DNA from: Mycobacteriales bacterium
GTDB taxonomy: Bacteria > Actinomycetota > Actinomycetes > Mycobacteriales > JACQDL01
Length of the DNA: 64,000 nucleotides
Assembly (NCBI GenBank): GCA_035476575.1
Contig: DATILL010000065.1
Span: forward strand, 49,149-113,148
Reading direction: 5' to 3'
Part shown: in pieces, positions 878 through 63,293 of the stretch
Layout of the letters: each line of letters begins with the position of its first letter
How positions within the stretch are numbered: position 1 is the stretch's first letter
Position numbers and translations under genes: made by a program
The notes under the pieces: model-generated
What the model was told of the DNA's origin: nothing
The model's database searches: none
What the model saw: only the letters and a program-made list of their open reading frames with translations

Positions 878-1061
878 GCCGGACATACCGATCCCACGAT
901 CCCAGCTCGCGTTGGCGCTCGCGGGTCCTGTTGAGAGGTCTCTCCGCGGACGCCGACTGCCCGTTCGGAGGACACTGGGTGGTGACTGGGCGCCGTTCGG
1001 CTGGGCCGGCGGTGATCAGCCAACGTTCGCCCAAGCGACCTGGCAGCCACCGGAGGTGATC

Positions 1062-1840: not shown

Positions 1841-2012
1841 CGGCAAACCCGTATCGGTAGTGGTTCTGAAGATTGCGCTGGCGGCAACCTATAGTGGCAG
1901 CGGTGCTGGAGGGTTACTCTCGGCGTCTGGCTCATGAGATTTCCCAAGATCACGCTCTTCGGCCGGAGGGGTCCGCTGCCATGACCGGGACTGGTTCTTT
2001 CGCGCGCTACCT

Positions 2013-8005: not shown

Positions 8006-8339
8006 CCCAGGCCGGTCCAACTCTCAGCCCCGATTCTGCGGTAGCGTCAAAGTTAGTATTCGCATTATTAGATAATCTCGCGGCGAGGTTAGCTCTATGT
8101 GGCAAGTCAGATCCCGCTGGTGGCGAGTTCGGGTGTTCCGGGTGCGCGGTATCTGTGGGGGAGTGATGGTCAAGGCACGGTGGCAGGCACCCCGCGGATC
8201 AACAGCCGGATCCGCAGACCCGCAGTTCGAGCAGTAGGAAGCTGCCGGTTCATTCATTGGAGCTGGCTGCGACGTGGTAACTTCGTCGGCGGTCCCTCTA
8301 AACCGGCCAGGAGCTGTGCGCCAGACCCCACTATGTGGT

Positions 8340-10444: not shown

Positions 10445-10450
10445 GTTGCC

Positions 10451-10699
10451 TTAGTCGTGCGCGGGGTCGGTGTCGACGGCGAGTGGGTCCTTGCCGTCGG
10501 GGTTGGTTTGCGCGGTGCAGGTCGCCACCATCGGCGCGACCTCGTGTAGCGGCCGACCATCCGGCAACACCGCGATCTGCTGGTCCGGGCAGAGGAAGGC
10601 GGCGGACAACACGGACCCATCAGGGTCGGCTGGGACCGGCAGCGCGAACACCAACCCCAACGGCGGACAAGGCTGCACATCGACGGTTATCGGATCCAT
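10451..10699 (-). CDS. Graspetide precursor peptide (82 aa); predicted core ..ATCTAQTNPDGKDPLAVDTDPAHD
   Basis: ATG 10699 is preceded by GGAGAGGAG. The Thr- and Asp-rich C-terminus surrounds an Asp-Gly dipeptide. The gene sits 6 nt upstream of the ATP-grasp gene. The 268-aa tracked ORF (to 11257) is treated as an upstream read-through artefact. Confidence 0.7.
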   Translation of the reverse strand: MDPITVDVQPCPPLGLVFALPVPADPDGSVLSAAFLCPDQQIAVLPDGRPLHEVAPMVATCTAQTNPDGKDPLAVDTDPAHD

Positions 10700-10949
10700 G
10701 GAGTCTCCTCTCCTGCGGCCAGATCTTATCCGGACGAGGCATGGTTTCTCACCACCTGGTCGGCACGGAAGTGGCTCGCCGTCCTCACGCGGCCGTTTAG
10801 CTACGACGAGCAACCGGCCGATAGGGCAGTTTCTTGAAGACCGAGACCGATATTGTCCGCGGTGCCGTGCGTCAGCCCGTGTTCGATGAAGGGTATGGGT
10901 GCAGAGCCGATCGAGATAGTTGGTCTGCTGGTGTCCGGTCTGTCTGCCG

Positions 10950-11253
10950 CGGGCGTGCGCCGGGGGCGGGTCGCGGCGTGGCAGACTCCACCTCATGTTG
11001 CGCTGGATAACCGCGGGGGAGTCGCACGGCCCCGCGCTGGTCGCCGTACTCGAGGGGCTGCCGGCCGCGGTGCCCGGATGAGCTTCGAGCGGGACGAGGT
11101 CGAGCTGACCGGCGGGGTCCGGCACGGGGTCACGATGGGCGGCCCGGTCGCGATCCGGGTCATGGCCGTCGACCCGGTCGACCCGGACGAGCTCGCCAGC
11201 CTGGCCCGCAACGCCCCCCTGACCCGGCCCCGCCCCGGCCACGCCGACCTGGA
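10950..11253 (+). pseudogene. aroC: Decayed duplicate of the aroC 5' end plus about 40 nt of upstream leader
   Basis: The nucleotide sequence is near-identical to 12072-12470, apart from two internal deletions. Read from ATG 10995 it gives [28 protein letters not shown] and then a stop. Confidence 0.85.
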
Positions 11254-12115: not shown

Positions 12116-15349
<3,234 letters not shown>

Positions 15350-16039
15350 CCCACCCGCACGGCTCAGCCGCCACCGGCAGTCCGGGGCGGCACGGGGTGA
15401 GAAACCCTGGCCGCCTATCTCTCCTACCGCAACTCGATGAAGGTTGGTCCGCGTCGACGCGGGCGCGGCGGCGTAGGGACGCAGCCGAGACGGCTGTACG
15501 GCGTAGCCTCGACGGGCCAAAAGACTAGGCTTCTACGAACCGAGGACACAGCTTCTGCCAAGATTTCCCAATGCGCACCGCGACGGCCGCAGATCGTGCT
15601 TGCCGCGCGGCTTCCGCACCGGCGGTGACGCCAGCCTCCGTCTCGCAGCCCATGCCTGGGCGCCGACCGCTAGAGCCGGTAGGCCTGCACCTGCACCCGT
15701 GCCCTTGGCGATTACAGCCGTCGCCACGCTCGTCTCCAGGCACGGCGAGCTGACCCGTGTCGGTCACGCCGGTCTGGTGGGTCTTGCCCATGTCGGTCCC
15801 CTTCCTCCTGGTCTTCCTGACCTTCTTGGCGGATCACCCGATAACCGCCATACGGCAGGTTGCCGGTGGGGAACCGCTGCCTCATTTCCGAAAGTCCGGA
15901 CAACCTCCATGGCGTGCCCGCCACGGGGGCATCGCCACCTGGCGCCTGGTGGCTCCTTTCTTGGCGGCAGCGGAGAGAACTAAATTTCAGAAAACGTGGT
16001 TCTCAACGACAACCGACCGCCACCCTAGGGGGAGACGGC

Positions 16040-16774
16040 ATGGCGGCGCGACAGGAGATAAGACTTGAACTACTGGGTGTCTTTCGGCTTCGGTACGCAC
16101 AGACCGCCGTTGTCCTGCGCCCAAGCTCGCGCCGTCTTATCGCGCTGCTGGCCGTTACCGGAACTCAGGCACGGTTGGACGCCGCCGCGCGGCTGTGGCC
16201 GGACCTGCTGCAGGCCCGAGCCGCGTCCAACTTGCGCACGGCGGCCTGGCGGATCCGGCAGGACGCGTGTGGGCTCCTGGTCAGCGAGGGCGACGTGCTG
16301 CGGCTTGAGGAGCTGAGCTGCGACCTCACGGAGGTACGGGACTGGGCGCGCCGCACGGTGGCCGGTGAGCAGCTTAGCCACCTCCCTGAGCACGCGGCGG
16401 CGGAGCTGCTGCCCCGGTGGAGCGACGAGTGGCTTATCGAGCCCCGCGAAGAGCTCCGGCTCCTGCAGCTGCACGCGCTTGAAGCATTAGCGCAGCGACT
16501 CCTCATGGCTGGTCGGCTCGCTGAGGCATGCACTCACGCGCTGACCGCCGTGATGATGGACCCACTACGCGAAAGCGCTACCCGGCTGCTTATCGAGATT
16601 CATTTGCGCGAGGGCAACACTCTGGACGCCGTCCGGAGGTTCCACCGCTTTGAGGAGCTGCTCGACCAAGAGCTCGACGTTGCGCCCAGCCCCGCGATCA
16701 CCTCTCTGGTGGCTCCCCTTATTACGTCGAAGCGTGCGGCGGGGGTTGACCCGCGAAGGCTCCGCCGGACCTGA
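16040..16774 (+). CDS. SARP-family regulator (OmpR-type winged helix plus bacterial transcriptional activation domain)
   Basis: The protein starts at ATG 16040 (MAARQEIRLELLGVFRL..). A BTAD-like helical region is present (LLIEIHLREGNTLDAVRRFHRFEELLDQELDVAPSP). It lies immediately upstream of the lanthipeptide genes. Confidence 0.75.
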   Translation: MAARQEIRLELLGVFRLRYAQTAVVLRPSSRRLIALLAVTGTQARLDAAARLWPDLLQARAASNLRTAAWRIRQDACGLLVSEGDVLRLEELSCDLTEVRDWARRTVAGEQLSHLPEHAAAELLPRWSDEWLIEPREELRLLQLHALEALAQRLLMAGRLAEACTHALTAVMMDPLRESATRLLIEIHLREGNTLDAVRRFHRFEELLDQELDVAPSPAITSLVAPLITSKRAAGVDPRRLRRT

Positions 16775-17009
16775 GGCTCAGCCACCCTCCGTGGCCGCCG
16801 ACCGCACCATGTGCCCGATAACTCCGTTCTCCGGCAACCCGTTCATCAACGCGTCGACCACTCGGCGTCGGCGCGGCTGCGACGGCATCGAGGCATCGCC
16901 GCGGCGCCCGCGCGGTGAGCTCCCGGCGCGCGAGGAGCCAGTCGACCCACGGGTGGGGAACGTAGCCCGTGCCATGGTCCTGGTGACGCACTCGCAAGGG
17001 AGGGGTCGA

Positions 17010-17372
17010 ATGGCCGACGGCGTGGACCTCGCGCATTTGCAGGAGCTCGAGCAGCGGCTCGCCACGCTCGAGGCACAGTCAGGCCAGCCATCAGGCGGCA
17101 GTGAACAAGGATCCGGAGGTGTCGGAATGACCAGCGGTCAAGGCCAAGCCCCAAGCCCAGAGCAACAAGGGCTTATGCAGGCGTTCTTGCAAGGGGCCAT
17201 GGCGGCCCAGGCGCTCGCCCAAGCGGCGGCACAGCAGGCGGGCCAAGCGGGCCAGGCGGTCGTCGGCGCGCAGGGCGGTGCAGCTCCAGCGGGGTTCACG
17301 AGCTACGACTCCATCTTCTGGTGCAGGAGCCGGTTCATGTGCAACCCGCAGTCAATCTCCTGCTTCTGCTGA
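17010..17372 (+). CDS. Lanthipeptide precursor (120 aa); C-terminal core ..FTSYDSIFWCRSRFMCNPQSISCFC
   Basis: ATG 17010 follows a GGGAGGGG RBS. The leader opens with an amphipathic HLQELEQRLATLEA segment and continues as a long Q/A/G-rich stretch. The last 25 residues contain 6 Ser/Thr and 4 Cys. The kinase and LanC genes lie directly downstream. Confidence 0.75.
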   Translation: MADGVDLAHLQELEQRLATLEAQSGQPSGGSEQGSGGVGMTSGQGQAPSPEQQGLMQAFLQGAMAAQALAQAAAQQAGQAGQAVVGAQGGAAPAGFTSYDSIFWCRSRFMCNPQSISCFC

Positions 17373-17539
17373 GGACGAGAAGAGGCACCTGAGCCGGGCG
17401 GGGCGTCGCGGCCCACGCCATGCCCTGCGCATGCCGTGTGCGGCGCTCCCCTGGCTTGGTCCTTGCGCGCAGCCGGCGAGGAGTGCGGCCCAGTGCGGAA
17501 TGCGGCCAGTGCGGAATGCGGCCCAGTGAGGAGTGGACG

Positions 17540-18700
17540 GTGACGGACAAGCTGCTGACCGAAGCTCACGGAACCCTGACCGAGACTGAGGTCATCCCAT
17601 ACCTGCGCGAACGCGGTCTCGTCGACGGCGCCAGCGTCGTCGACGGCGACATCCGCGTTCTCGACGTGTCGCGACGGAACCGGAACTTCCGCGTGCTCCG
17701 CTCCGCGGGACCGTCGTTCCTGCTCAAGCAGGGCGTCGCGCGGGACAGCTTCAGCGCTGTTGCCCGGGAGGCACGTGCTTATGAGCTGTTCGGCCCGTTG
17801 CCCCACAGCGTCGGGGCGGGATCGTCGCCAGCGTTTCGGCACGCGCCAACCGCGTACGCATACGACGACGAGCGCGACGTGCTGGTCCTGGAGCTCGTGA
17901 CCGGCGTGGAGAACCTGCGCGTCCGGCACCGGCGCGCGCGCCGCCCGCCGCGAGACGCCGCTCGTGCCGTCGGGCGGGCGCTTGCCGCGCTGCACCAGCT
18001 TGTGCCGGCGACGGTCGACCTGGCCACGGCGCAGCGGCTGCTGGGGGCCGGCGAGCCTGGTGTCTTGTCGGTGCAGCGTCCGGGGCTGAGCATGCTGCGC
18101 GACTTCAGCAGCGCGTGCGTTGACCTGGTGCGGATGGTCCAGGCGGCGCCCGACGTCCCCGAGCTGCTCGCCGGCCTGCGGCAGGACTGGCGCACTGACA
18201 CGCTGATTCACCATGACGTCCGCTGGGACAACTTCCTGCTGCCCCTTCCGCGCGCGCGAAATGGCGCACGCGGCCGGCGTGAGGTCATGCTCGTCGACTG
18301 GGAGACCGCCGCCCTGGGCGACCCCTGCTGGGATGTCGGCGCGGTGTTTGGTGAATATCTCGGCGACTGGCTCAGCTCCGTCCCGGGTGTGGCAGGAGAG
18401 CCGCCAGAGCGGTTCCTGCATTTGGCGCGCTGCCCGCTGGAGTCGGTGCAGCCAGCCGTCCGGTCGTTCTGGTCGGCCTATGTCGGGCAGGCCGGCCTGG
18501 CAGCGGGACAGGCCAGCGAGCATCTTCTCCGGTCAGTCCGGTACTCCGGGCTCAAGCTGGTTCAGTCTGGCCTGGAGCAGGTGCAACGGTCCGCCCGGTG
18601 GACCGTCTGCACCGTGTCCTTCCTGCAGGTCGGGGTCAACATCCTGACCAGGCCGGAGGAGGCTGGCGCTGTGCTGCTCGGGTTGGGAGGCGTGGCGTGA
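17540..18700 (+). CDS. Aminoglycoside-phosphotransferase-like kinase (LanK-type dehydration kinase candidate)
   Basis: GTG 17540 follows a GAGGAG RBS. The catalytic loop is HHDVRWDNFLL and the metal-binding segment is LVDWETAALGDPCWDVG. Its stop overlaps the next gene's start. Confidence 0.75.
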   Translation: MTDKLLTEAHGTLTETEVIPYLRERGLVDGASVVDGDIRVLDVSRRNRNFRVLRSAGPSFLLKQGVARDSFSAVAREARAYELFGPLPHSVGAGSSPAFRHAPTAYAYDDERDVLVLELVTGVENLRVRHRRARRPPRDAARAVGRALAALHQLVPATVDLATAQRLLGAGEPGVLSVQRPGLSMLRDFSSACVDLVRMVQAAPDVPELLAGLRQDWRTDTLIHHDVRWDNFLLPLPRARNGARGRREVMLVDWETAALGDPCWDVGAVFGEYLGDWLSSVPGVAGEPPERFLHLARCPLESVQPAVRSFWSAYVGQAGLAAGQASEHLLRSVRYSGLKLVQSGLEQVQRSARWTVCTVSFLQVGVNILTRPEEAGAVLLGLGGVA

Positions 18701-21120
18701 CCAGCCATGTCGACCGCCTCGACGAGGCGGTGCGCGCGGTGCGGATCGTGTCGTCGACGTCCTTCACCTGGTTCGGCGTCCGGTCGCCCGCCCCACCGGC
18801 CCGGCTCCGGTCCATGTTTACCCCCGAGGTCGCTCGCGCCCACCTGCGCCTCGGCCTCCGTGACCGGCTTTACCAGGACTTTTACTGCGCGGGCACGGCA
18901 CGGCCCTCCCCGTCGCAAGACTGGCACGCCGGCCGGCCCAGTGACCGGATGGCCCTCGCGATGTCCCGCGCCAACGGCGGCCGCGGCACGTGGGAACCGG
19001 GCTGGGTGGTCCGCACCGTCGAAGAGGGGCTGTTCGCGGTGCGCCGCAACGGCCTGGAGCTGTGGGTACGGCCGCAGGACTGCCGCACCGACGCTGGGAC
19101 GCCGGCTTCCGGGCACGAGGTAGCGGTCCGCCTCCCCAAGGAGTCGTTCGAGCTGGCGCCCGGCTACTACTGCGCCCTCAGCGACGCGCCCTTTCCGTGG
19201 GATGGCGACGGCGTCCTGGTCCGGGTGTACCTCAACCTGCGACCCGACCAGGCGGTGCGTGGCGTCGGGGCGCTCACCGGCCGGCTCAACGCCGCTGACG
19301 TGCCGTACCGGTTGAAGGTGCTCAACGACGAGCAGAGCTACGCCCGGTGTGACACCGCGGTGCTCTACCTGCGGCAGCAGGATGTTGCCGTCGCCGTTGA
19401 GCCCCTTGCCCACGCCGTCAACGACCTCCGCGCGGCGTTGCGGCCGGCAGTGCCGGCGATGACCAAGGCGCTGGTGCCGGGGGTGGGGCTGGCCGAGGAC
19501 CCGGGATCCGCCGGTGACAGCTTCGGGCAGCACCGCTGCGCGCTGGTCGCCGACGGGTTGCTGCAGGCGCACGAGGTGGGCAGCAGGTCTCCGCGGGCCC
19601 AGTTGGAGGCAGTCCTGGACGTCTTCCGCGCCGCGGGCGTCGATCCGGAACGGCCTTACCTGAACCCCGGCTCGCTCGACCGCTACGCGCTTCCCGCCCA
19701 GCCCCGCCTCGCCATCCCTGGGTGGAGGCCGGTCCGCGCCGACGGTGCCGGGAGCCCCGACCTCCGGGTGGCCCCCTTGAGCGCTGTCGCGCTCATCGAC
19801 GTCGCGCGCCGGATCGGCTGCCGGCTGACCGCCGACGCCGTCTGGCACGAGGACCGCTGCACCTGGCTCGGGCCTGTTCCAGCGCTGGACGAGCATGGCG
19901 GGCCGGCGCTGGCGCACGGCACCATTGGCAGCGGGCTGTATGACGGCACCAGCGGCGTCGCTGTTTTCCTCGCCGCGCTCGCCGCCACGACGGGCGACCA
20001 GGATGCGGCCCGGACCGCGTCGGCCGCGGTCCGGCAGGCGCTGGGCGCCGCCGGGCACGGCCGCGACGCCCCTGGCCTGTACAACGGCACGGTGGGCGTG
20101 TGCCTCGCCGCCGCGGTCGTGGCCAGGCTCACCAGCGACGGCGCCCTGGCCACGGCTGCCCGAAAGCTCGTAGACGAAGCGCTGTCGCGCCAGCAGGAGG
20201 CGTTCGGGTTCGACGTCCTGTCCGGCTTGGCCGGTGCGGTCGCGGGCGTGCTGACGCTCTCGGCGCTGCTTGCGGACAGCAGCCTGGTCGAGGACGCGGT
20301 CCGGCTCGGAGAGGCGCTGGTCGGCGCCGCCGTTCGCGCTGACGAGGGCTGGTCGTGGCGGCCCGGGACCGGGTTGCGCCATCCCGATCTGACCGGCCTG
20401 TCGCACGGTGCCGCTGGCGCGGGCTACGCGTTGCTGGAGCTCTTCCGGGTCACTGGCGACAGCCGGTGGGCGTCGGCGGGCCGGGAGGCTTTCCGGTACG
20501 AGCGGGCCTGGTTCTCGCCGGACGCGGGCAACTGGCCGGACTTTCGCGACGAGAAGGGGCGGCCGTCGCGGCGGCGCCCCTTGGCGTTCCGCACCCAGTG
20601 GTGCCACGGCGCACCAGGGATCGCCCTCACCCGGCTCAGGGCCGCCGAGCTCCTGGGCGACACAGCGCTGGGCGAGGAGGCGGTCGTGGCGCTGTCAACC
20701 ACCATCGAGAACACTCGGGCGGCCCTGCTCGATGGGACTTTGGGCTTCAGCCTGTGCCACGGGCTGGCCGGCAACGCGGACGTGCTGCTCGACGGCCTGC
20801 CGCTGGCGGAGGAGCGGGACCTTCCCGCCCGGGCGTTGGTGGCGGAGATTGCCGCGGCCGGACATGCCCGGCACGCCGTCGGCGAGCAGCCGTGGCCCTG
20901 CGGGCTGTCTACGCACGGAGGCGAGAGCCCCGGCCTCATGCTTGGGCTCGCGGGTATCGGCTACCACTACCTCCGCCTCGCCTGTCCCGACGTCGTCCCG
21001 TCCGTGCTGCTGCTGCGGCCGGAGCGCACGGCCGAAGGCATCGCCGCGCTCGCGGGCGAGCGGGCCAGCCGCGCTGCCACCACCAGCCGCGCTGCCACCA
21101 CCAGCCTTGCGGGCACGTAA
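18697..21120 (+). CDS. Fusion protein: about 400-aa N-terminal domain (candidate HopA1-like phospho-Ser/Thr lyase) plus a C-terminal LanC-like cyclase
   Basis: The GTG start overlaps the kinase stop (GTGA). The C-terminal half has the LanC signatures GLSHGAAGAGYALLELF, TQWCHGAPGIALTRL and FSLCHGLAGNADVLL, so the Zn ligands are present. The N-terminal assignment is inferred from three-component (class V) systems and was not recognised directly. Confidence 0.7.
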   Translation: MTSHVDRLDEAVRAVRIVSSTSFTWFGVRSPAPPARLRSMFTPEVARAHLRLGLRDRLYQDFYCAGTARPSPSQDWHAGRPSDRMALAMSRANGGRGTWEPGWVVRTVEEGLFAVRRNGLELWVRPQDCRTDAGTPASGHEVAVRLPKESFELAPGYYCALSDAPFPWDGDGVLVRVYLNLRPDQAVRGVGALTGRLNAADVPYRLKVLNDEQSYARCDTAVLYLRQQDVAVAVEPLAHAVNDLRAALRPAVPAMTKALVPGVGLAEDPGSAGDSFGQHRCALVADGLLQAHEVGSRSPRAQLEAVLDVFRAAGVDPERPYLNPGSLDRYALPAQPRLAIPGWRPVRADGAGSPDLRVAPLSAVALIDVARRIGCRLTADAVWHEDRCTWLGPVPALDEHGGPALAHGTIGSGLYDGTSGVAVFLAALAATTGDQDAARTASAAVRQALGAAGHGRDAPGLYNGTVGVCLAAAVVARLTSDGALATAARKLVDEALSRQQEAFGFDVLSGLAGAVAGVLTLSALLADSSLVEDAVRLGEALVGAAVRADEGWSWRPGTGLRHPDLTGLSHGAAGAGYALLELFRVTGDSRWASAGREAFRYERAWFSPDAGNWPDFRDEKGRPSRRRPLAFRTQWCHGAPGIALTRLRAAELLGDTALGEEAVVALSTTIENTRAALLDGTLGFSLCHGLAGNADVLLDGLPLAEERDLPARALVAEIAAAGHARHAVGEQPWPCGLSTHGGESPGLMLGLAGIGYHYLRLACPDVVPSVLLLRPERTAEGIAALAGERASRAATTSRAATTSLAGT

Positions 21121-21166
21121 CCAGCCGCCTCGGCGGCACCCGTCTAGCATCACCTTGGGGAGCGTC

Positions 21167-22609
21167 ATGTACAGCGAGGTCCTAGCCGGGGCACTGCCCA
21201 CCACCCACCGCGCGATGGTGATCGTCCGGCTCCGTGCGGGGTCGGCGGCAGGCCAGGCCGCCGCGGAGGCCGAGCCTACGGGCGGCCTGTCCATCCTCGA
21301 TGAGCTCGACCGGGCCGGCCGGGTGAGGGCGGTCCTGCCGTTGACCCCCGCCGCGGCAGGGCCGGAGGGCGCCGGCGGTGCGATCGCCGCGCTGTCCACC
21401 ACTGCGCAGCAGGGGGACCTGGGCGCGGCGAGCATCATCCGCCTCACCGACGACGAGGACGTGGCCCGGCTGCTTCCGGCCCTCAACGACCACCGCGACG
21501 TTGAGTACGCCAGCCGCGTCCCGGCCCGCTGGTTCGCCTCCGCGACACCGCCGGCTCAGGCCGTCGAGCACCGGATCGCCGGCCTGGAGTCCCGCATCGC
21601 GGGCCTTGAGGCAGCCCCCCAGCCTTCTCCGGTGTGGAACCTACAGAAGGTCCTGTGGGACCAGGCGGTCCGCGAGCTCGGGACCGAGGAGGTCGGGAAC
21701 GTGCGCGTCGGCGTCCTCGACACCGGCGTCGACGACCAGCACCCTGACCTGGCCGACCGGCTGGCCCGCTACGTCCACGCTGGCCCGTCCACCTCCGGGC
21801 AGGTGGTGTCCGACCAGGACGTCGTCGGGCACGGCACGCACGTCGCCGGCACCATCGCCGCCCGGTTCAACCAGGCGATCGGGACACGCGGGATCTGCGC
21901 CACCCGGCTGTCAGTATGGAAGATCTTCGACGATGTCCCCGACTACATCGAGACACGGGGCGTGTACTGGTATCTCGTTGACCCGGTCCTGTACCGGCGG
22001 GCGCTCGCCGACTGCGCCGAGCAGGTCGACGTCGTCAACCTCAGCATTGGCGGCACCGAGCCGCCCGACCCGCAGGAGAGTGCGCTGTTCCGCGTGCTCG
22101 GCGAGCGCGGTGTCACGGTCGTGGCGGCGATGGGCAACGAGCGCGGCCTGGGCAGCCCGACGTCGTACCCGGCCGCCATCCCGGGTGTGGTCGCCGTCGG
22201 GGCCACCGCGCCCGACGACAGCGTGGCCTCCTTCTCCAACGCCGGCGACTACATCAGCGTGTCCGCGCCTGGGGTCGCTATCTGGTCCACGGTGCCCCAC
22301 TATCCTGGGCAGGTCGGGTTCCATGCCGACGTCCGCGCCGACGGCCAGCCCGAGCGCGGCGCGCCGGTGCCGCGCGAGGTGAACTACGCGGCATTGAGCG
22401 GTACGTCCATGTCCGCGCCGCATGTGACGGCGGCGACCACCCTCCTGCTGGCGAGCAGCCGCCAGAAGCGCGATCCGGAGTCGGTCCGCTACCTGCTCAT
22501 GGCCAGTGCTGATCATGTGGGGAGCATGCAGGGCCAGGTGTGGAACCGGGACATCGGCGCTGGTCGGCTCAACCTGCGCCGGCTGATCCTCGCCGGCCGG
22601 CACCTGTAG
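21167..22609 (+). CDS. Subtilisin-like S8 serine protease (candidate leader peptidase)
   Basis: The catalytic triad motifs VGVLDTGVDDQHPDL, GHGTHVAGTIAA and SGTSMSAPHVTAA are present. ATG 21167 follows GGGGAG. Confidence 0.85.
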   Translation: MYSEVLAGALPTTHRAMVIVRLRAGSAAGQAAAEAEPTGGLSILDELDRAGRVRAVLPLTPAAAGPEGAGGAIAALSTTAQQGDLGAASIIRLTDDEDVARLLPALNDHRDVEYASRVPARWFASATPPAQAVEHRIAGLESRIAGLEAAPQPSPVWNLQKVLWDQAVRELGTEEVGNVRVGVLDTGVDDQHPDLADRLARYVHAGPSTSGQVVSDQDVVGHGTHVAGTIAARFNQAIGTRGICATRLSVWKIFDDVPDYIETRGVYWYLVDPVLYRRALADCAEQVDVVNLSIGGTEPPDPQESALFRVLGERGVTVVAAMGNERGLGSPTSYPAAIPGVVAVGATAPDDSVASFSNAGDYISVSAPGVAIWSTVPHYPGQVGFHADVRADGQPERGAPVPREVNYAALSGTSMSAPHVTAATTLLLASSRQKRDPESVRYLLMASADHVGSMQGQVWNRDIGAGRLNLRRLILAGRHL

Positions 22610-22616
22610 CACCGGC

Positions 22617-22874
22617 ATGGCAGCGCCAGTTGTCGCGTTCACCATCGCGGCGGATGTCCCCGCGGAGGCGCAGGGTGCGGTGATCGCGGCGGTCAGGTCC
22701 GTTGACGGGGTGGTGGACGCCTACCGCCTCTCCCCGGAGTCGAGCATTCCGGAGGTACGGCGCATGTGCGCCGCGGCCCTCGCCAACGGTGCCGATCCGC
22801 GCGCGGTGGCCGCACGCGTGCGGGGCGTCCCCGGCGTCGAAAGCGCCGACGTGCCGCCTGCCCGCGGGATCTGA
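22617..22874 (+). CDS. Hypothetical 85-aa protein at the end of the lanthipeptide island
   Basis: The ORF has GC-biased third positions. It starts 8 nt after the protease stop. No motif was recognised. Confidence 0.4.
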   Translation: MAAPVVAFTIAADVPAEAQGAVIAAVRSVDGVVDAYRLSPESSIPEVRRMCAAALANGADPRAVAARVRGVPGVESADVPPARGI

Positions 22875-22920
22875 CCTGTGGACAACCGGCCTTGCTGGCC
22901 GGGCGGATACCGTGGCAGCC

Positions 22921-24018
22921 ATGCCTGCCACCCACATCGCCCGGCGGGACCGGCTGCGGGAGATCCTCCGCGAACGCGGGCTGGACGCCGCCCTGGTCAC
23001 CAACCTGGTCAACGTCCGCTACCTCACCGGTTTCACCGGCACCAACGCCGCCCTCCTGGTGTACGCCGACGGCCCGGGCGCCGACCCGGGCGTGTTCGGC
23101 ACCGACGGCCGGTATGACGCCCAGTCGGCCGAGCAGGTGCCGGAGCTGCCCCGGGTGCTCCAGCGGGCCACCGACCAGGCCATGGCCGCCCGAGCCGCCG
23201 CCGACGGCCACCACACGGTCGGCTACGAGTCGCACCACGTCACCGTGGACGGCCTCGCCGAGCTGCGGGCCGCCGCCGAGCAGCTCCGGCTCGCCACCCT
23301 CAACCAAGCGGTCGAGCAGCTCCGGCTGACCAAGGACAACGCCGAGATCGAGCTGCTCCGGCGGGCCTGCGCGATCGCCGACCAGGCCCTGGCCGGGCTC
23401 ATCGAGGCCGGCGGGCTGCGGCCCGGCCGGACGGAGCGCCAGGTCGGCCGCGACCTGGACGGCCGGATGCTGGACCTCGGCGCGCACGCCGTCAGCTTCG
23501 AGACGATCGTGGCCACCGGGCCGAGCTCCGCCATCCCGCACCACCGCCCGGACGACCGTGAGCTGGCCGCGGGCGACCTCGTCAAGCTGGACTTCGGCGC
23601 GCAGTACGGTGGCTACCACTCCGACATGACCCGCACGATGGTCCTCGGCGAGCCGGCCGGCTGGCAGCGCGAGATCTACGAGCTGGTGGCCGCGGCGCAG
23701 CGGGCCGGCAGCGCCGCCGTGGCCGTCGGTGCGGACGTGCGGGAGGTGGACCGGGCCGCCCGCGAGGTGATCGAGCGGGCCGGGTACGGCGAGCGGTTCA
23801 GCCACGGGCTGGGGCACGGGGTGGGGCTGGAGATCCACGAGGCACCGGCGTTGTCCCCTCTCGGCGCCGGTACACTCGCCGAGGCGACGCCGCTCACCGT
23901 CGAGCCCGGTGTGTACCTGCCCGGCCGCGGCGGCGTCCGCATTGAGGACACGCTCGTGGTCCGCGCCGACGGGCCCGAGCTGCTCACCCTCACCACCAAG
24001 GATCTCGTCAGCCTGTAA
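22921..24018 (+). CDS. pepP: Xaa-Pro aminopeptidase (M24 family)
   Basis: The protein starts MPATHIARRDRLREIL. The metal-ligand block SHGLGHGVGLEIHEAP is present. It sits in conserved synteny with efp and nusB. Confidence 0.85.
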   Translation: MPATHIARRDRLREILRERGLDAALVTNLVNVRYLTGFTGTNAALLVYADGPGADPGVFGTDGRYDAQSAEQVPELPRVLQRATDQAMAARAAADGHHTVGYESHHVTVDGLAELRAAAEQLRLATLNQAVEQLRLTKDNAEIELLRRACAIADQALAGLIEAGGLRPGRTERQVGRDLDGRMLDLGAHAVSFETIVATGPSSAIPHHRPDDRELAAGDLVKLDFGAQYGGYHSDMTRTMVLGEPAGWQREIYELVAAAQRAGSAAVAVGADVREVDRAAREVIERAGYGERFSHGLGHGVGLEIHEAPALSPLGAGTLAEATPLTVEPGVYLPGRGGVRIEDTLVVRADGPELLTLTTKDLVSL

Positions 24019-24597: not shown

Positions 24598-25001
24598 CGG
24601 CGCGGAGCACGGCACGCAAACGGGCGCTGGACGTCCTGTACGAGACCGACCTGCGCGGCACCAGCGCGGTGGACACGGTAGCCGAGCGGATCGCCGTCGC
24701 CGACCCGCCGGTGCCGGAGTACGCCGTGACCCTGGTCGAGGGCGTCGCCGGCCACCGGGCCCGCATCGACGAGATCATCGCGTCCTACGCTGAGGGCTGG
24801 ACGATCGACCGGATGCCCACGGTGGACCGCAACATCCTGCGGATCGGGGTGTACGAGCTGCTCTGGTGCGACGACGTGCCGGACGCGGTGGCCGTGGACG
24901 AGGCAATCGAGCTGGCCAAGGCGCTGTCCACCGGCGACTCGCCCCGGTTTGTCAACGGCCTGCTCGGTCGCATCATCCGTAGTCGCCCGGTGGTCAGCTA
25001 G
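24594..25001 (+). CDS. nusB: Transcription antitermination factor NusB
   Basis: 135-aa ORF with [10 protein letters not shown] and [20 protein letters not shown] motifs. Its start overlaps the efp stop. Confidence 0.9.
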
Positions 25002-25010
25002 CCCTCCCAG

Positions 25011-25080
25011 CTCCGACGATCATCGACCTGTGGTCGCTTGTTGATCTCCAGCCGCGACCACAGCTCGATGATCGTCGGAG
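25011..25080. repeat. Dispersed hairpin element, copy A (70 nt)
   Basis: CTCCGACGATCATCGAcCTGTGGTCGC-ttGTTGATCTCCAgcc-GCGACCACAGcTCGATGATCGTCGGAG. The 27-bp arms have one mismatch. It lies in the intergenic region between nusB and bldD. Confidence 0.85.
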
Positions 25081-25135
25081 AGGGGCGCGGCGGAGAGGGG
25101 CGCGGTCAGGCCGGAGGGCAGCTACCGGAGGGCAG

Positions 25136-25636
25136 CTAGGAGAGGCTGTCGCTGCCGACGGTCCGGGCGTCGGGGGAGAGCACCCCCCACTCGATCAGCC
25201 GGTCGGTCAGCTCGCCGGCCGACTGGTCGTAGATGATCGCCAGCGAGCGCAGGTCCTCGGCCCGGATGGACAGCACCTTCCCGTTGTAGTCGCCGCGCTG
25301 GCTCTGGATGGCGGCCGCGTAGCGGGCCAGCGGGCCGACCTGCTCGGCCGGCAGCCGGCCCAGGGTCTCCAGGTCGAGCACGATCCGGGTGGCTGGCTCG
25401 CCCCCGGCCGGTGGCCGGCCCTCGGGCAGCAGCTCGCTGACCGGCACGCCGTAGAACTCGGCGAGCTCGGCCAGCTTCTGGACGGTGACCGCGCGGTCGC
25501 CCCGTTCGTAGGATCCGACGACGACCGCCTTCCACCGGCCCTGAGATTTCTTCTCCACGCCGTGCAAGGACAGTCCCTGCTGGGTGCGGATCGCCCGTAG
25601 GCGCGCGCCTAGGGCCTTGGCGTAGTCGCTCGTCAT
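25136..25636 (-). CDS. bldD: Developmental master regulator BldD (XRE-type HTH, c-di-GMP-binding C-terminal domain)
   Basis: The N-terminus MTSDYAKALGARLRAIRTQQGLSLHGVEKKSQGRWKAVVVGSYERGDRAVTV closely matches Streptomyces BldD. The bipartite RGD-x8-RAED motif (QRGDYNGKVLSIRAED) is present. Confidence 0.9.
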   Translation of the reverse strand: MTSDYAKALGARLRAIRTQQGLSLHGVEKKSQGRWKAVVVGSYERGDRAVTVQKLAELAEFYGVPVSELLPEGRPPAGGEPATRIVLDLETLGRLPAEQVGPLARYAAAIQSQRGDYNGKVLSIRAEDLRSLAIIYDQSAGELTDRLIEWGVLSPDARTVGSDSLS

Positions 25637-34531: not shown

Positions 34532-35586
34532 TGCTCTACCGGCGGGTGCTGCGGCCGGCACTGTTCCGGCTCGGCGGCGGGGACGCGGAGACGGCGCACG
34601 AGTGGACGCTGCGCGGGCTGGCCTGGCTGGACCGGCAGCCGACGGCGCTGGCGGCGCTGCGGCGGCGGTACGGCGGTACGGCGCCGCGCACGGTGTTCGG
34701 GGTGCGGTTCGCCAACCCCGTCGGGCTGGCCGCCGGGATGGACAAGGACGGCCGGGCGCTGCGGGCCTGGCCGGCGCTGGGCTTCGGCTTCGTCGAGGTG
34801 GGCACCGTAACGGCCTGGCCGCAGCCGGGCAACCCGCGGCCGCGGGTGTTTCGGCTGCCGGCCAGCGAGGCGGTCATCAACCGGATGGGCTTCAACAACG
34901 CCGGCGCCGCGGCGCTGGCGGACCGGCTCGCGGGGTACGGGCGGCTGCCGGTGCCGCTCGGGATCAGCCTGGGCAAGTCCAGGGTCACCCCGCTGGACCA
35001 AGCGGTGGAGGACTACCTGGGCTCACTGGCCCGGCTCTACCCGTACGGCGACTACTTCGCGGTGAACGTCAGCTCGCCGAACACGCCCGGGCTGCGGGCG
35101 TTGCAGGGCGCCGGCCACCTCGCCGAGCTGCTGGGGGCGCTGCGCGCGCACGGGCCGAAGCCGCTGCTGGTGAAGATCGCGCCGGACCTGGCCGAGCCGG
35201 ACCTGGCCGAGCTGCTCGCAGCCTGCGCGGCGCATGGCGTGGACGGCGTTATCGCGACGAACACGACCACCAGCAGGCCGGGCCGGCTGGGCCTGCTGGC
35301 GGGCGGGCCGGCGAGCGAGGCGGGCGGGCTGTCCGGCCGGCCGCTGCGGGCGCTGGCCCTGGACGTGGTGCGGTTCGTCGCCCGGGAGACGGGCGGCTCG
35401 CTGCCGATCATCGCGGTGGGCGGCATCCTCGACCCGGACGACGCCGCCCGGATGTTCGACGCGGGCGCCAGCCTGGTCCAGCTCTACACCGGCCTGGTGT
35501 ATCGCGGGCCGGGGCTGGTCCGGGCCATCAACCAGTCGGCGGCCAGCCGCCGCCCGTCCCGACGATCATCGACTTTTGGGGGTTAG
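34531..35586 (+). CDS. pyrD: Dihydroorotate dehydrogenase (quinone), class 2
   Basis: [10 protein letters not shown] and IAVGGI motifs are present. The start overlaps the carB stop. The last codons and the stop lie inside hairpin element copy B. Confidence 0.9.
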
Positions 35587-35625
35587 TTGATCTCCAATCA
35601 CCCCAACAACTCGATGATCGACGGG
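35558..35625. repeat. Dispersed hairpin element, copy B
   Basis: CCCGaCGATCATCGAcTTTTGGGGG-TTAGTTGATCTCCAAT-CACCCCAACAAcTCGATGATCGaCGGG. The ends and loop match copy A, but the inner stem differs while remaining complementary. Confidence 0.8.
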
Positions 35626-36465
35626 AGCTTTGGGGCCAGTTTTGGGGCCAGGCTGCTGGGCCGGCTGGCCGAGCGCGGAGCGCTGTGCGTGGGCATCGAC
35701 CCGCATCCCGGCCTGCTGCGCGACTGGGGGCTGGCCGACGACCTTGCCGGGCTAGCGGCGTTCACCCGTACGGCGGTCGACGCGCTGGCCGACCGGGTCG
35801 CCGTGCTCAAGCCCCAGTCGGCCTTCTTCGAACGGCACGGCTCCCGCGGCATCGCCGTGCTGGAGCGGGTCATCGCCGACGCCCGGGCCGCCGGCGCGCT
35901 GGTGCTCCTCGACGCCAAGCGCGGCGACATCGGCAGCACCGTCGCGGCCTACGCCGCTGCCTACCTCGACCCGGCCAGCCCGCTGTGCGCCGACGCGGTG
36001 ACCGCCAGCCCCTACCTCGGCTTCGGCTCGCTGGCGCCCATGGTGGACGCCGCGCTGGCCGGCGGCGGCGGCGTGTTCGTGCTCGCGCTGACCTCCAACC
36101 CAGAGGGCGGCGCGGTGCAGCGGGCTGTCGGCGGCGACGGCCGGACGGTCGCCCAGTCCATGGTGGACGGTGCCGCGGCGGTGAACGCGGGCGCCGACCC
36201 GATCGGCTCGGTCGGCGTGGTGGTCGGCGCGACGGTGGGGGAGCACGGGCTCGACCTGGCCAGGCTGCACGGCCCAGTGCTGGTACCCGGGCTCGGCGCC
36301 CAGGGCGGTACGGCGGCCGACGTGGGCCGGCTGTTCGGCCCGACGGCCCGCGCCGTCGTACCCAGCATGTCGCGGGAGATCCTCCGGCATGGGCCCGACC
36401 CCGCCGCGCTGCGCGCCGCGGCCACCCGGGCCACCGACGAGCTCCGCACCGTGCTGGCCGGCTGA
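35614..36465 (+). CDS. pyrF: Orotidine 5'-phosphate decarboxylase (type 2)
   Basis: The LDAKRGDIGST motif is present. ATG 35614 is preferred over the tracked TTG 35587, which lies in the hairpin loop. Confidence 0.85.
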   Translation: MIDGSFGASFGARLLGRLAERGALCVGIDPHPGLLRDWGLADDLAGLAAFTRTAVDALADRVAVLKPQSAFFERHGSRGIAVLERVIADARAAGALVLLDAKRGDIGSTVAAYAAAYLDPASPLCADAVTASPYLGFGSLAPMVDAALAGGGGVFVLALTSNPEGGAVQRAVGGDGRTVAQSMVDGAAAVNAGADPIGSVGVVVGATVGEHGLDLARLHGPVLVPGLGAQGGTAADVGRLFGPTARAVVPSMSREILRHGPDPAALRAAATRATDELRTVLAG

Positions 36466-52924: not shown

Positions 52925-53003
52925 GGTGACCACAGCGCCGACAGGTCACCACACGGGCGCTGCGGGCAACGACAGGTGACCACAACGCCGAGAGGTGACC
53001 ACA
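52925..53003. repeat. Array of four GGTSACCACA sites (two 19-bp doublets, 50 bp apart), directly downstream of the TraB-like remnant
   Basis: The cores lie at 52925, 52944, 52975 and 52994. The string gggcaacgacaGGTGACCACAACGCCg is identical to 54-80 at the left end of the window. Confidence 0.75.
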
Positions 53004-53016
53004 GGGGAGGGCGGAG

Positions 53017-58760: not shown

Positions 58761-59276
58761 ATGGAGCCAGCGGAGGTGTTGGCGTGCGCGGCAGCGCCCG
58801 AGCGCCTGCTGCGGAACCCCGTCTTCCTGATGGCGCAGATCGTCCGGCTGGCCCGGCGGCGCGCCGCCACCGGCCACGAGGCCGTGCATCGGCTGCCGCG
58901 CTACGCCGTGCTCGCCGTGCTCGCCGAGTTCGGCCCGTGCTCGCAGCGTGGGGTCAGCGACCGGCTGCGGATCGACCCGAGCGACCTGGTGGACGTGATC
59001 GACGCGATCGAGCGGGACGGTCACCTGGTGCGCGAGCGTGACCCCCGGGACCGGCGGCGCTACACGGTGCGGATCACCCCGGCCGGCCGGCGCGCGCTGC
59101 GGGCTACCGACGAGCGCTCGCGGGACTGGCAGCAGAAGTTCTTCGAGCCGCTGTCCACGGCCGAGCTGGAGACCCTGCGCGACCTGCTGGCCAGGCTGTA
59201 CGCCCACCACTCCTGCTGTGACGATCATCGAGCCGCTGGGACTGTTGGAGATCAACAAGGCACAATGACCCGGTGA
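58761..59276 (+). CDS. MarR-family transcriptional regulator
   Basis: The winged-helix block is YAVLAVLAEFGPCSQRGVSDRLRIDPSDLVDVIDAIERDGHLVRERDPRDRRRYTVRITPAGR. The gene is divergent from the ABC exporter. Its C-terminal codons run through the degenerate hairpin-element copy D. Confidence 0.8.
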   Translation: MEPAEVLACAAAPERLLRNPVFLMAQIVRLARRRAATGHEAVHRLPRYAVLAVLAEFGPCSQRGVSDRLRIDPSDLVDVIDAIERDGHLVRERDPRDRRRYTVRITPAGRRALRATDERSRDWQQKFFEPLSTAELETLRDLLARLYAHHSCCDDHRAAGTVGDQQGTMTR

Positions 59277-62026
59277 TCGACAGCTCCGGGGACCGCGACC
59301 CGGCGGACGCCGACCCGGCCCGGTGGGTGGACCCTTTCATCGGCACCCGGCCGGGCGGGCTCGACTTCGGCCATGGCGGCGGCGCCGCGAACACGTTCCC
59401 CGGCGCGACCACGCCGTTCGGCATGGTGCAGTGGAGCCCGGACACCGAGACCTACCAGCACGGCGGGTACCACTACGACGACAACCGGATCAAGGGCTTC
59501 AGCCTGACCCACCTGTCCGGGCCAGGCTGTGGTGACCTGGGCAACCTGCCGTTCCTGCCGGTGCTGGGCCGGGTGGCGCCGTATCTGCGGTTCAGGCACG
59601 AGAACGAGCGGGCCGAGCCGGGCTACTACCGGGTCGCCCTGGACAACGGCGTCAGCGTGGAGCTGACCGCGACCACCCGGTCTGGCCTGGCCCGGATCCG
59701 GTACCCGGCCAGCCGGCCACGCCGGCAGCGGGCCGGGCTTGTGGTGGACGCCGGGGCCGCCGTCAACCCGGCGACCGGCCGGGTCGACATCCGCGGCCGC
59801 GAGCTGTCCGGGTGGACCGAGTCCGGCGGGTTCTGCGGCACCGGCAACCGGTACACGCTGTACTTCCACGCCGAGCTGGACACCGACTTCGCCAGCAGTG
59901 GAGACGGCGAGCCACGGGTCGAGCTGGACCTCGGCGCCGCCGAGACCGTGACCATGCGGGTCGGGCTGTCCTATGTGGACGCCGCCGCGGCTGGCCGAAA
60001 CCTCGCCGCCGAGCAAGGCGGCGACCCCGGGAGCCCCAACCCTGGGAGCCCCAACCCTGGAGGCCGTAGCGACTTCGCGGCGGTCCGGACCGCTGCCCGG
60101 CAGCGGTGGAACGAGCTGTTGTCCCGGATCGCCGTGGCCGGCGGCACCGACGAGCGGCGGACCGTCTTCTACACCGCGCTCTACCACGCCCTGCTGCACC
60201 CCAACGTGTTCAGCGACGTGGACGGGCGGTACATCGGCTTCGACGGGCAGGTCCACACCGTGCCGGCCGGCCACGCGCAGTACGCCAACTTCTCCGGCTG
60301 GGACGTCTACCGCTCCCAGGTGCAGCTCATCGCCCTGCTCGACCCGGCGCTGGCCGCCGACATCGCGCAGTCGGCGGTCAACCAGGCCGAGCACGGCGGC
60401 TACTGGGACCGCTGGACTATCGCCAACGGCGGCACCGGAGTGATGGTCGGCGACCCCATGCAGATCATCGTGGCCAGCATCTACGCCTTCGGCGGTACCG
60501 CGTTCGACGCGCCGCGGGCGCTGCGGCTGATGGAGCGCGGCAGCACCGACGAGCGGGAGCGGCCCGGCCAGGCCCGGTACGAGGCGATGGGCTACCTGCC
60601 GGCCGGCGCGGGCGGCGTGTGGGGCTCAGTGTCCACCGCGCTGGAGTACGGCGCCGCCGACCTCGCCGTCGCCCAGCTTGCCCGGCGGCTCGGCGAGCCG
60701 GCGACGGCCGAGCGGTTCCAGTGGCGGGCGCAGCGGTGGCGGCATCTGGTCCGGCCCGGCTCGGGCTACCTCCAGCCACGGGCGGCGGACACCTCGTGGC
60801 CGCCGTTCAGCCCGACCCAGACCGCTGACTACGTCGAGGGCAACGCCGCGCAGTACGCCTTCAGCGTGCCGTGGAACGTGCGCGGGCTGTTCGACGCGCT
60901 GGGTGGCGACGAGGTGGTGCTACCCCGGCTGGAGGCGTTCTTCACCGAGCTGAACGCCGGCCCGGGCAAGCCCTACGCCTATCTCGGCAACGAGCCGACC
61001 CTGCATGTGCCCTGGCTGTTCGGCTACGCCGGCGCGGCGCACCGCACCCAGGACGTCGTCCGGCGGGTGGTCAGCACGATCTTCCGGGCCGCCCCGGACG
61101 GGCTGGTCGGCAACGACGACCTCGGCCAGATGTCGTCCTGGGCGGTGTGGGCGATGCTCGGCATGTACCCGCTGCTGCCCGGGCGGGCCGAGCTGGTGCT
61201 GGCCAGCCCGGAGTTTGAGCGGGCCACCGTCCGGCGCGGCGACGGCACGGTGATCGACATCCGGGCGCCCGGCGCGTCGGTCACCTGCCGGTACGTGCGT
61301 GGGCTGCGGGTGAACGGCCGGGAGTGGTCGCGGCCGTGGCTGCCGGAGTCGTTCGTGCTGGCCGGGGGCACGCTGGAGTACGAGCTGTCCGAGTGTCCCG
61401 AGCCGGGGTGGGGGAGCGCGGCGGAGGACGCGCCGCCGTCGTTCGACCACGTGGGCACGCCGGCTCCGCTGGCGTCGTACGCCGACAACGACAGCCGTGA
61501 CCTGGACCTGTTCGGCTGTGGGTACGCCGTGGCGGCGTTGCGGGCCGCCGGGGTGCGGCCGGGCGGGCAGGTCAGCGTCGGTGGGCTGGTCTACCCGGTG
61601 CCGGCCGGTCTGGCGGCTGGCGGACCGGACGGCGCTGGCCCTGACAACGTGCTGGCCTTCGGGCAGGAGGTGGACCTGGTCTGGGTGCCGGCTGGCGCGA
61701 CCCGGCTGGGCTTCCTGGGCGCGGCCACGCACGGGCCGTCGGCCGGGACGGTGCTGCTGCGGTACGCCGACGGTGTGGTGCGTCGGGCGCTGCTCGGCTT
61801 CCCCGACTGGACCCTGAACGGTGCCACGGCGGACCTCGAGTACGGTGCGGCCGTGGCCGCCCGGATGCCGTACCGCAGCGTCGGCAGCGAACGGGACATG
61901 ATCGCCAGCTACCTGTTCGGCAGTGCGCCGATCGCGCTGGACCCAGGCCGGCGGCCGGTCTCCGTCCGGCTGCCCTGGACGGTCGGGTCGGGCCGGCTGC
62001 ACGTGTTCGCGGTCAGCGCCGGGTGA
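59273..62026 (+). CDS. Glycoside hydrolase family 92 (alpha-mannosidase-like)
   Basis: 917-aa ORF with the blocks [23 protein letters not shown] and [18 protein letters not shown], characteristic of GH92. Confidence 0.8.
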
Positions 62027-63185: not shown

Positions 63186-63204
63186 GCTCCACCTGCCCCT
63201 CACT

Positions 63205-63271
63205 CCGAACGATCATCGAGTTGTTGTCGCTAGTTGATCTCTACCAGCGACAACAACTCGATGATCGGCGG
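63205..63271. repeat. Dispersed hairpin element, copy C
   Basis: CCGaaCGATCATCGAGTTGTTGTCGCT-AGTTGATCTCTACC-AGCGACAACAACTCGATGATCGgcGG. It lies in the intergenic region between crcB and the PAAR gene. Confidence 0.85.
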
Positions 63272-63293
63272 GTAGGGGGCGGGAAGGGCGGGC

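Follow-up and report, generated by a model that had tools for sequence, protein, structure and literature searches.

A dispersed palindromic hairpin family at the 3′ ends of genes in uncultured high-GC actinomycetes

The DNA examined here, referred to as the window, is a stretch of 64,000 nucleotides from a Mycobacteriales bacterium (assembly GCA_035476575.1, contig DATILL010000065.1, positions 49,149 to 113,148 of the forward strand). It is a housekeeping region that includes aro genes, efp, nusB, bldD, pyr genes, gmk, coaBC, metK, priA and rsmB. Four copies of a short hairpin element, here called A to D, are present at the ends of its genes (Table 1), and Pfam identifies the flanking gene products as NusB/BldD for copy A, DHO_dh/OMPdecase (dihydroorotate dehydrogenase and orotidine monophosphate decarboxylase, from pyrD and pyrF) for copy B, CrcB/PAAR for copy C and MarR/GH92 for copy D. 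These copies belong to a dispersed family of palindromic hairpins at gene 3′ ends that is real and multi-copy, with about 40 members recovered overall. The family was previously uncatalogued, yet it is a familiar kind of object and does not constitute a new class of RNA.

The element and its four copies in the window

Copies A, B and C have identical arms, CGATCATCGA and TCGATGATCG, whose end-to-end spacing is exactly 58 nt, and they share the central loop GTTGATCTC with its core TGATCT. Arms and inner stem form a helix of 22 bp that is extended by further outer pairs (22-28 bp or more) and that closes a loop of 14 nt. The palindrome continues outward through TCCCGA/TCGGGA into flanks that are C-rich on the 5′ side and G-rich on the 3′ side, where ungapped complementarity dwindles about 10-12 nt out and the bias of C over G reaches about 40 nt. 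One copy therefore comprises the 58-nt core plus approximately 6-12 nt of outer arm on each side, or about 70-80 bp in total. The arm 10-mer, with at most one mismatch, occurs 18 times where 3.2 occurrences are expected, and the loop 9-mer occurs 21 times where 6.1 are expected.

Folding and homology searches recover the same elements. The energies predicted by RNAfold for copies A, B and C are -60.6, -36.7 and -51.6 kcal/mol (z = -10.5, -5.2 and -10.5), whereas copy D folds hardly better than its shuffled versions (z = -2.5). A first covariance model was built from copies A, B and C, and the window was searched with it without filters. All three scored 91-98 bits (A 98 bits, B 91 bits; E ~1 × 10⁻²¹), copy D scored 43 bits on the minus strand, and there was no other convincing match in the window. 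A second model, built from 38 copies, gave the same four matches.

An earlier note on this DNA, prepared from the sequence alone, had listed copies at these four places and had described a hairpin family with conserved arms and loop. Direct reading of the sequence bears out the former, and the scores and folds given above bear out the latter. The copy that the note called degenerate, at 59220, is indeed present, although in the orientation opposite to that of copies A-C; its inner stems have lost their pairing, and its loop reads on the minus strand. The note also placed every copy exactly at a gene end, and the identities of the flanking genes were confirmed, but copy D lies within the 3′ end of the MarR gene and the start of the GH92 gene rather than in a spacer.

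A canonical intrinsic (Rho-independent) terminator can be rejected as an identity for these hairpins. As the note had observed, no U-tract or T-run follows the hairpin at any of the four window copies, where the downstream sequence is G-rich, and a scan for consensus terminators did not call the full hairpin. The note had also been unable to assign the element to an Rfam family, and the whole window has zero Rfam matches when gathering thresholds are applied. With E-value thresholds instead, the matches are confined to generic long-hairpin microRNA models and score far under the cut-offs of those models.

Table 1. Positions of the four copies and associated features in the window (strand in parentheses)
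Feature	Position	Description
Copy A	25011..25080 (+)	Core 25017-25074; outer arms CTCCGA/TCGGAG; seen by direct reading, folding and covariance model
Copy A, order of core parts		CGATCATCGA-CCTGTGGTCGC-TTGTTGATCTCCAGCC-GCGACCACAGC-TCGATGATCG
Copy A, neighbours		Convergent nusB (stop 24999-25001) and bldD (stop 25136-25138)
15-nt perfect tandem duplication	25076..25105 (+)	CGGAGAGGGGCGCGG x2; begins in the 3′ outer arm of copy A
14-nt perfect tandem duplication	25111..25138 (+)	CCGGAGGGCAGCTA x2; doubles the bldD stop-codon region
Copy B	35557..35626 (+)	Core 35563-35620; inner stem with 3 mismatches; pyrD/pyrF junction, co-directional genes
pyrD stop TAG	35584..35586 (+)	5′ edge of the copy B loop
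Candidate pyrF start ATG	35614..35616 (+)	Within the 3′ arm of copy B (TCG ATG ATC), in the pyrF frame
12-nt tandem duplication	35629..35651 (+)	TTTGGGGCCAGT x1.9; just 3′ of copy B, in the pyrF N-terminus (FGAS-FGAR), four codons
Copy D	59216..59285 (-)	Core 59222-59279; inverted, decayed; loop TTGTTGATCTCCAAC and one arm retained
Copy C	63203..63274 (+)	Core 63210-63267; convergent neighbours: crcB, stop 63183-63185; PAAR-motif gene, stop 63294-63296

Further copies and their place at gene ends

The earlier note had proposed a wider search with a covariance model, and had counted a lack of further copies among the conditions under which its claim would fail. Many such copies were found. A metagenome scan used a pattern made of the arms plus three flanking bases and did not require the loop; it returned 51 loci, and about 35 of these represent true copies, almost all of them from long contigs of one metagenome, Ga0307470, with approximately 67-71% GC. 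At least two related, uncultured high-GC actinomycetes carry the element in regions of the core chromosome. The 58-nt spacing recurs in nearly every true metagenome copy, with four at 55-59 nt. Every true copy carries the loop core G-A-T-C-T, which the search had not requested, and both orientations occur. Comparison of the loop variants GTTGATCTC, AATGATCTC, GCTGATCTC, CTTGATCTC and GTCGATCTC indicates that TGATCT is close to a real constant. The 58-nt family consensus is CGATCATCGAGTTGTTGTCGCTAGTTGATCTCCAACAGCGACAACAACTCGATGATCG, from which copy C differs at only 2 loop positions.

When the first covariance model was run over the 420 kb of metagenome loci, one clear extra copy emerged (L149:10289), the 3′ arm of which has a single mismatch. 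A few weak matches in these 420 kb proved on inspection to be a second repeat family, described below, or unrelated palindromes. A divergent member was found on a Ga0126372 contig of about 70% GC from another organism (L131:980-1038); it has the same arms, the loop CGTTGATCTTCTG and an unrelated inner stem, in which TCATCC/GGATGA are paired and the remainder is mismatched. A search of genome contigs with an arms-only pattern of 20 bases yielded, among the approximately 105 matches listed, none with the loop, and these matches are chance occurrences in coding sequence from many phyla. No match to the element was obtained in a pattern scan of viral contigs or by BLAST against plasmids and phages. 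Full-text literature searches for the arm sequences returned only primers and unrelated matches, and no description of the family.

Two arrangements of copies in the metagenome loci stand out. At L149:7196-7253 and L149:10289-10346, near-identical copies in the same orientation (3 differences in 58 nt) flank a 3-kb segment that encodes a HipA-like kinase and a GmrSD/DUF262 endonuclease and that adjoins serS and a type I restriction R subunit. The segment could be a defence cassette with the repeat at its borders. At L132:3930-3960, the outer or 5′ arm is partly duplicated beside a full copy (CCCCGACGATCATC CCGCCCTCTGACGATCATCGAG).

The genes flanking all these copies were called by codon-position GC phase, which is dependable at approximately 90-95% GC in third codon positions, with about eight of the calls being of low confidence. 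Of the 37 classifiable copies, approximately 22 have convergent neighbours and 15 have co-directional ones, and no copy is flanked by a divergent pair; at least one gene ends at each site. The probability of finding at least 22 convergent sites is at most 9 × 10⁻⁶, and that of finding no divergent site is 2 × 10⁻⁵ to 2 × 10⁻³, depending on the background assumed. In-frame stops that these calls located outside the core are mostly about 5-40 nt from it. In several copies the upstream frame enters the element and ends 24-28 nt inside, at a TAG or TGA of the loop, and in the consensus two of the three frames that enter the 5′ arm terminate in the loop. The element has been absorbed into gene termini, where its loop supplies the stop codons TAG or TGA and its arm the stop codon TGA; the arms probably supply start codons as well (ATG or GTG).

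A relative of the window organism provides a comparison for two of these sites. The closest database relative of BldD (91% identity) is encoded by the metagenome-assembled genome GCA_016201065.1, whose corresponding locus (L158, 20.5 kb) shows synteny with the window and a DNA identity of 77-81%. A covariance-model search found no copy at nusB/bldD, at pyrD/pyrF or elsewhere in these 20.5 kb, and copies A and B hence appear to be lineage-specific gains or replacements. The nusB/bldD spacer of the relative is 32 nt long and, together with both stop codons, forms a distinct 38-nt perfect palindrome, GGTCGGTTGACCCGATGCC/GGCATCGGGTCAACCGACC (L158:10501-10548). This palindrome contains CCCGA...TCGGG, and its stems give it a score of 18 bits against the model. 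Exact-protein look-ups for sister strains led from NusB to one Logan contig of 1.2 kb, with an overlap 100% identical to the window, and gave nothing for BldD or CrcB.

At the pyrD/pyrF junction, the pyrD frame reads across the 5′ arm of copy B and stops at the TAG of its loop, just as the earlier note had it, so that the loop provides the stop codon; the C-terminus of the product is unlike that of the relative. Judged from its frame and position, the ATG in the 3′ arm is the most plausible pyrF start. The OMPdecase domain lies within 35614-36465, and the N-terminus reads MVEAFGSRL in the relative and MIDGSFGASFGARL in the window. At the MarR/GH92 junction, the degenerate arm of copy D, GGTGATCG, holds both the MarR stop TGA (59274-59276) and the GH92 start GTG (59273-59275), and about the last 17 MarR residues are encoded by copy D.

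Several other features of the window were recorded. It contains approximately 33 short tandem duplications, and the three that lie within 60 nt of copies (Table 1) are more than expected (Poisson p ~0.001). Two segments are not in the relative. One, of about 10 kb (828-11062), encodes a Crp-like helix-turn-helix protein, a tetratricopeptide-repeat protein of 1793 residues and an MvdD-type ATP-grasp enzyme. The other, of about 7.6 kb (15337-22938), encodes an APH-type kinase, a HopA1-lyase/LanC-like fusion and an S8 subtilase, and looks like a lanthipeptide-type cluster inserted among the aro, pepQ and efp genes.

The second dispersed repeat, found through weak model matches, consists of arrays of units of approximately 50 nt (GTGTGGTSACC-N8-KTGTGGTSACC-TGTCGTTG..) in direct and inverted arrangement. 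In the window it occupies 1-180 and 52925-53030, and the Ga0307470 loci contain at least 14 arrays; further locations include L109:11047-11230, L110:1361-1440 and 6108-6220, L126:1038-1170, L129:2705-2840 and L156:181-310. This family also shows the window organism and the Ga0307470 organism to be related. The arrays are bracketed by C-rich and G-rich flanks similar to those of the hairpin family, and the sequence GTTGTGGTCAC of the second family is closely like the inner stem GTTGTGGTCGC of the hairpin family. The palindrome at L155:8183-8246 (GGTGACC-TGTTGGGGTC-TTGA-GACCCCAACA-GGTCACC) combines the "GGGG" inner stem of the hairpin family with other flanks and a 4-nt loop. A chimera at L110:1340-1470 has an outer arm (GCTTTCCCGAC) and a 3′ arm (TTGATGATCGCCGGGAAAGGG) of the hairpin family placed around a second-family array, with the normal core replaced.

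Constraint on the arms, loop and stems

Constraint is distributed unevenly over the element. The three full window copies agree in all 20 arm columns, as opposed to 11 of 24 inner-stem columns (p = 5 × 10⁻⁵). These columns were not selected by any search, and the first model added only one copy in 420 kb; the near-invariance of the arms is thus not merely an effect of searching with them. The earlier note had called the inner stems completely different, which they are not. Between copies A and C, 3 of the 12 positions in the 5′ arm are different, as are 2 of the 11 in the 3′ arm, copy B has CAACAAC in common with copy C, and the inner stems of all 38 aligned copies follow one consensus as variants of GYTRTKGKSGY. 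The note further stated that each stem remains self-complementary, but the inner stem of copy B has 3 mismatches.

Covariation was counted for each helix on the 38-copy alignment, with 500 shuffles and a series of slid alignments as controls. The whole structure exceeds all 500 shuffles and every slid control, both in cells paired and in covariation score, and therefore pairing is maintained. The contributions of the helices differ. In the arms, 98.3% of cells are paired, but 9 of the 11 pairs never vary and are uninformative on structure for this reason. The inner helix is 83.6% paired, with changes on both sides in 8 of 11 pairs (for example 25:60, UA in 19 copies and CG in 11; 31:54, UA in 22 and GC in 10; 32:53, CG in 19 and GC in 15), and the outer helix is 68.9% paired, with changes on both sides in 9 of 12 pairs. 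Mutual information reveals that columns 31, 32, 53 and 54 are linked to one another as a two-base block, TC..GA versus GG..CC. This linked block marks subfamilies and holds most of the covariation signal, and pair 25:60 is the only one that clearly varies independently.

The earlier note took covariation of this kind to mean that a folded structure is under selection. One form of that idea is that the hairpin is a structured RNA evolved by the host, such as a factor-dependent terminator, an RNase processing site or a motif of 3′ untranslated regions, whose arms and loop are bound by an RNA-binding protein. The very stable folds, the compensatory changes of the inner helix beyond both sets of controls, the invariance of a loop core that was not selected for and the strict placement at 3′ ends are all consistent with such an RNA. 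Nevertheless, most of the covariation resides in the one linked block, which is a subfamily marker. About 16% of inner-stem cells are unpaired, including 21 recurrent T.C mismatches, and G:U-type and A:C-type mismatches are about equally frequent in the inner helix (17 versus 26) and in the outer helix (42 versus 47). Since an A:C on one strand is a G:U on the other, this symmetry is no sign of selection on a transcript of one strand. In co-directional contexts, the orientation of the asymmetric loop bears no relation to the direction of transcription (5 versus 10, p = 0.30). Moreover, the relative has no copies at the orthologous sites of otherwise syntenic genes, copies B and D overlap coding sequence, and Rfam provides no match. 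Hence the evidence does not show selection at the level of RNA, the step from covariation to a selected RNA fold does not follow, and we regard a host-evolved structured RNA as unlikely.

The fit of the data to a DNA palindrome that stays palindromic is no worse than their fit to an RNA whose structure is selected. Palindromy could be kept by descent from palindromic masters, by hairpin-templated correction or by structural selection. Invariant arms and loop alongside free stems are, however, unexplained by the picture of a neutral repeat, and something still reads those sequences. The three TGATC motifs, one in each arm and one in the loop, are the obvious candidate determinants.

Origin, function and relation to known repeats

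We judge it probable, with moderate confidence, that the family is a lineage-specific repeat resembling repetitive extragenic palindromes (REPs) and miniature transposable elements of the inverted-repeat type (MITEs), of probably mobile origin, that has been retained only at the 3′ ends of genes, where a hairpin is harmless or useful. Such a repeat would have spread by non-autonomous transposition or a similar copying process. Its invariant arms (CGATCATCGAG) and the loop core TGATCT, with their three TGATC motifs, would be recognised by a mobilising or binding protein, and the inner stem would need only to pair. When transcribed from either side, the hairpin of at least 25 bp would act as REPs do in Escherichia coli, as a bidirectional terminator lacking a U-tract or as a block to 3′-exonucleases. 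E. coli REP325, for example, is a partially Rho-dependent terminator and a stabiliser of upstream mRNA (bioRxiv 10.64898/2026.03.23.713779). Such a role would account for the persistence of copies at the ends of convergent and co-directional genes and for their absence from divergent promoter regions. By analogy, then, the present element is likely to be a bidirectional U-tract-less terminator or an mRNA stabiliser.

Several observations weigh against this interpretation. There is no target-site duplication, as the flanks are complementary rather than direct repeats; the self-complementary CG, GATC and TCGA of the conserved arms are the only possible hidden duplications and are unreadable without empty sites. 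No autonomous parent, REP-associated tyrosine transposase or multi-copy transposase was found in approximately 480 kb, which comprises the window and the loci. Likewise, the scanned open reading frames of the window contain no transposase-like Pfam domains, no multi-copy protein family was found near the metagenome copies, and no solitary arm pairs 1-2 kb apart, which would mark a longer parent element, are present in the window and loci. The relative, at about 80% identity, is too divergent to yield a clean empty site, boundary or target-site duplication, and the absence of copies there could reflect loss or replacement, as its nusB/bldD site holds another palindrome. No two copies have the same inner stem while the arms are invariant, a pattern that a recent burst followed by neutral decay does not predict and that points to continuing constraint. 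Finally, the metagenome sample was selected for perfect arms, and the activity ascribed to the hairpin is assigned by analogy.

Other explanations place the constraint elsewhere. We give a rather small chance to the proposal that the hairpin is the substrate of an undescribed sequence- and structure-specific protein of an uncultured actinomycete lineage that reads all three TGATC motifs, those of the duplex arms as well as that of the single-stranded loop, with the inner stem as an exchangeable module that also occurs in the second family. Such a protein might be a hairpin-recognising transposase or nuclease that leaves no target-site duplication, or the hairpin might have been recruited across the genome by the host as a factor-dependent, sequence-specific bidirectional terminator. 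Very unlikely, in our estimation, is a binding site or cruciform for a host chromosomal protein (nucleoid-associated, topoisomerase or repair), as was once proposed for bacterial interspersed mosaic elements (BIMEs), with the three TGATC motifs as its recognition sequence. Invariant double-stranded arms and a loop that each contain TGATC would suit such a site, as would an orientation independent of transcription and a palindromy kept without an RNA-specific signature. Against this, no protein emerged as a candidate, such a site would not predict confinement to 3′ gene ends, copies are narrowly and patchily distributed and missing from the relative, and loop orientation shows no association with local GC skew, a proxy for replication direction (17 versus 21). 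We likewise consider it very unlikely that a conserved core was inserted into the centre of pre-existing palindromic terminators, targeting hairpin centres or short palindromes (GATC, CG) so that the outer stems represent the target: the outer flanks are variable yet complementary, the site in the relative is itself a perfect palindrome with similarity to the model and the second-family arrays have similar flanks, but the 5′-C-rich/3′-G-rich polarity and the TCCCGA consensus are too uniform over about 37 sites for independent targets, and only one empty site is available for comparison.

Whatever its origin, a repeat of this type matters for annotation, because its copies shift the stops and starts of genes (pyrD/pyrF and MarR/GH92) and because covariation screens would mistake them for structured RNAs. 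If the hairpins terminate transcription or stabilise transcripts, they would give high-GC actinomycetes, whose termination signals are poorly characterised, a ready collection of bidirectional terminators that are defined by sequence and lack a U-tract. The combination of invariant arms and loop, free stems and modules shared with a second family also makes this a reasonable system for examining how repeats are copied and kept palindromic. Families that resemble REPs or MITEs are little described in Actinobacteria, a phylum on which the survey of Di Nocera et al. 2013 (PMC3733652) is silent.

Some known elements can be set aside. CRISPR repeats and ends of the IS200/IS605 type were rejected on sequence and arrangement. 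Integron attC sites have the core sites R''/R' = RYYYAAC/GTTRRRY and are arrayed in one direction beside an integrase. The GTTGTTG/CAACAAC of the hairpin fits neither GTTRRRY nor RYYYAAC, the copies are dispersed in both orientations through housekeeping regions, and there is no integrase among the scanned open reading frames of the window.

A closer likeness is to the 'I-shaped' intrinsic terminators without a U-tract that have been reported in high-GC Actinobacteria. These too have a strong, GC-containing hairpin right after stop codons, lack a T-run and act bidirectionally between convergent genes, a behaviour that is predicted for the present element by analogy. Ordinary terminators are site-specific sequences, however, whereas the present hairpins recur as a family in which the 11-nt arms are invariant and the loop is conserved.

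Bacterial MITEs, such as the Correia elements of Neisseria and the ERIC/IRU elements of enterobacteria, are small, non-coding and essentially two inverted repeats present in many copies. They are tolerated in 3′ regions and can be co-transcribed, form long hairpins and supply stops and starts that reshape gene ends. The present element is also small and non-coding, and it has terminal inverted repeats, the whole of it being an inverted repeat around a 14-nt centre. Typical MITEs, however, are 100-300 bp long, have target-site duplications (TA for Correia) and have a recognisable parent insertion sequence, whereas this element is approximately 70-80 bp long, with neither a duplication nor a parent found in the window and loci. 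In addition, its most conserved parts are the subterminal arms and the loop rather than the extreme termini.

The nearest counterparts are REPs and BIMEs of Enterobacteria and Pseudomonas (PMC3733652). REPs are 20-40 nt long, and those of the CGTC families have stems of 8-9 bp, loops of 4-5 nt and an unpaired GTAG/CGTC tag at one end (Di Nocera et al. 2013, PMC3733652). Membership in these tagged families can be rejected on size, given the 58-nt core, 22-bp stem and 14-nt loop found here, and on the tag itself, since there is no GTAG and the CGTC in GATCGTCGG is paired with CCGACGATC and is thus symmetric rather than one-sided. The text of the same survey does not mention Actinobacteria or the main actinobacterial genera. 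In other respects the resemblance is extensive. REPs and BIMEs are likewise dispersed extragenic palindromes with variable stems in either orientation, they are concentrated after stop codons between convergent or co-directional genes and are sometimes intragenic, and they combine with other repeat modules (PMC3733652). The family described here has many dispersed copies that follow coding regions (about 40, of which 22, 15 and 0 are at convergent, co-directional and divergent sites), and, through the sharing of modules and the chimeras between its two repeat families, it is mosaic in the manner of BIME-type repeats.

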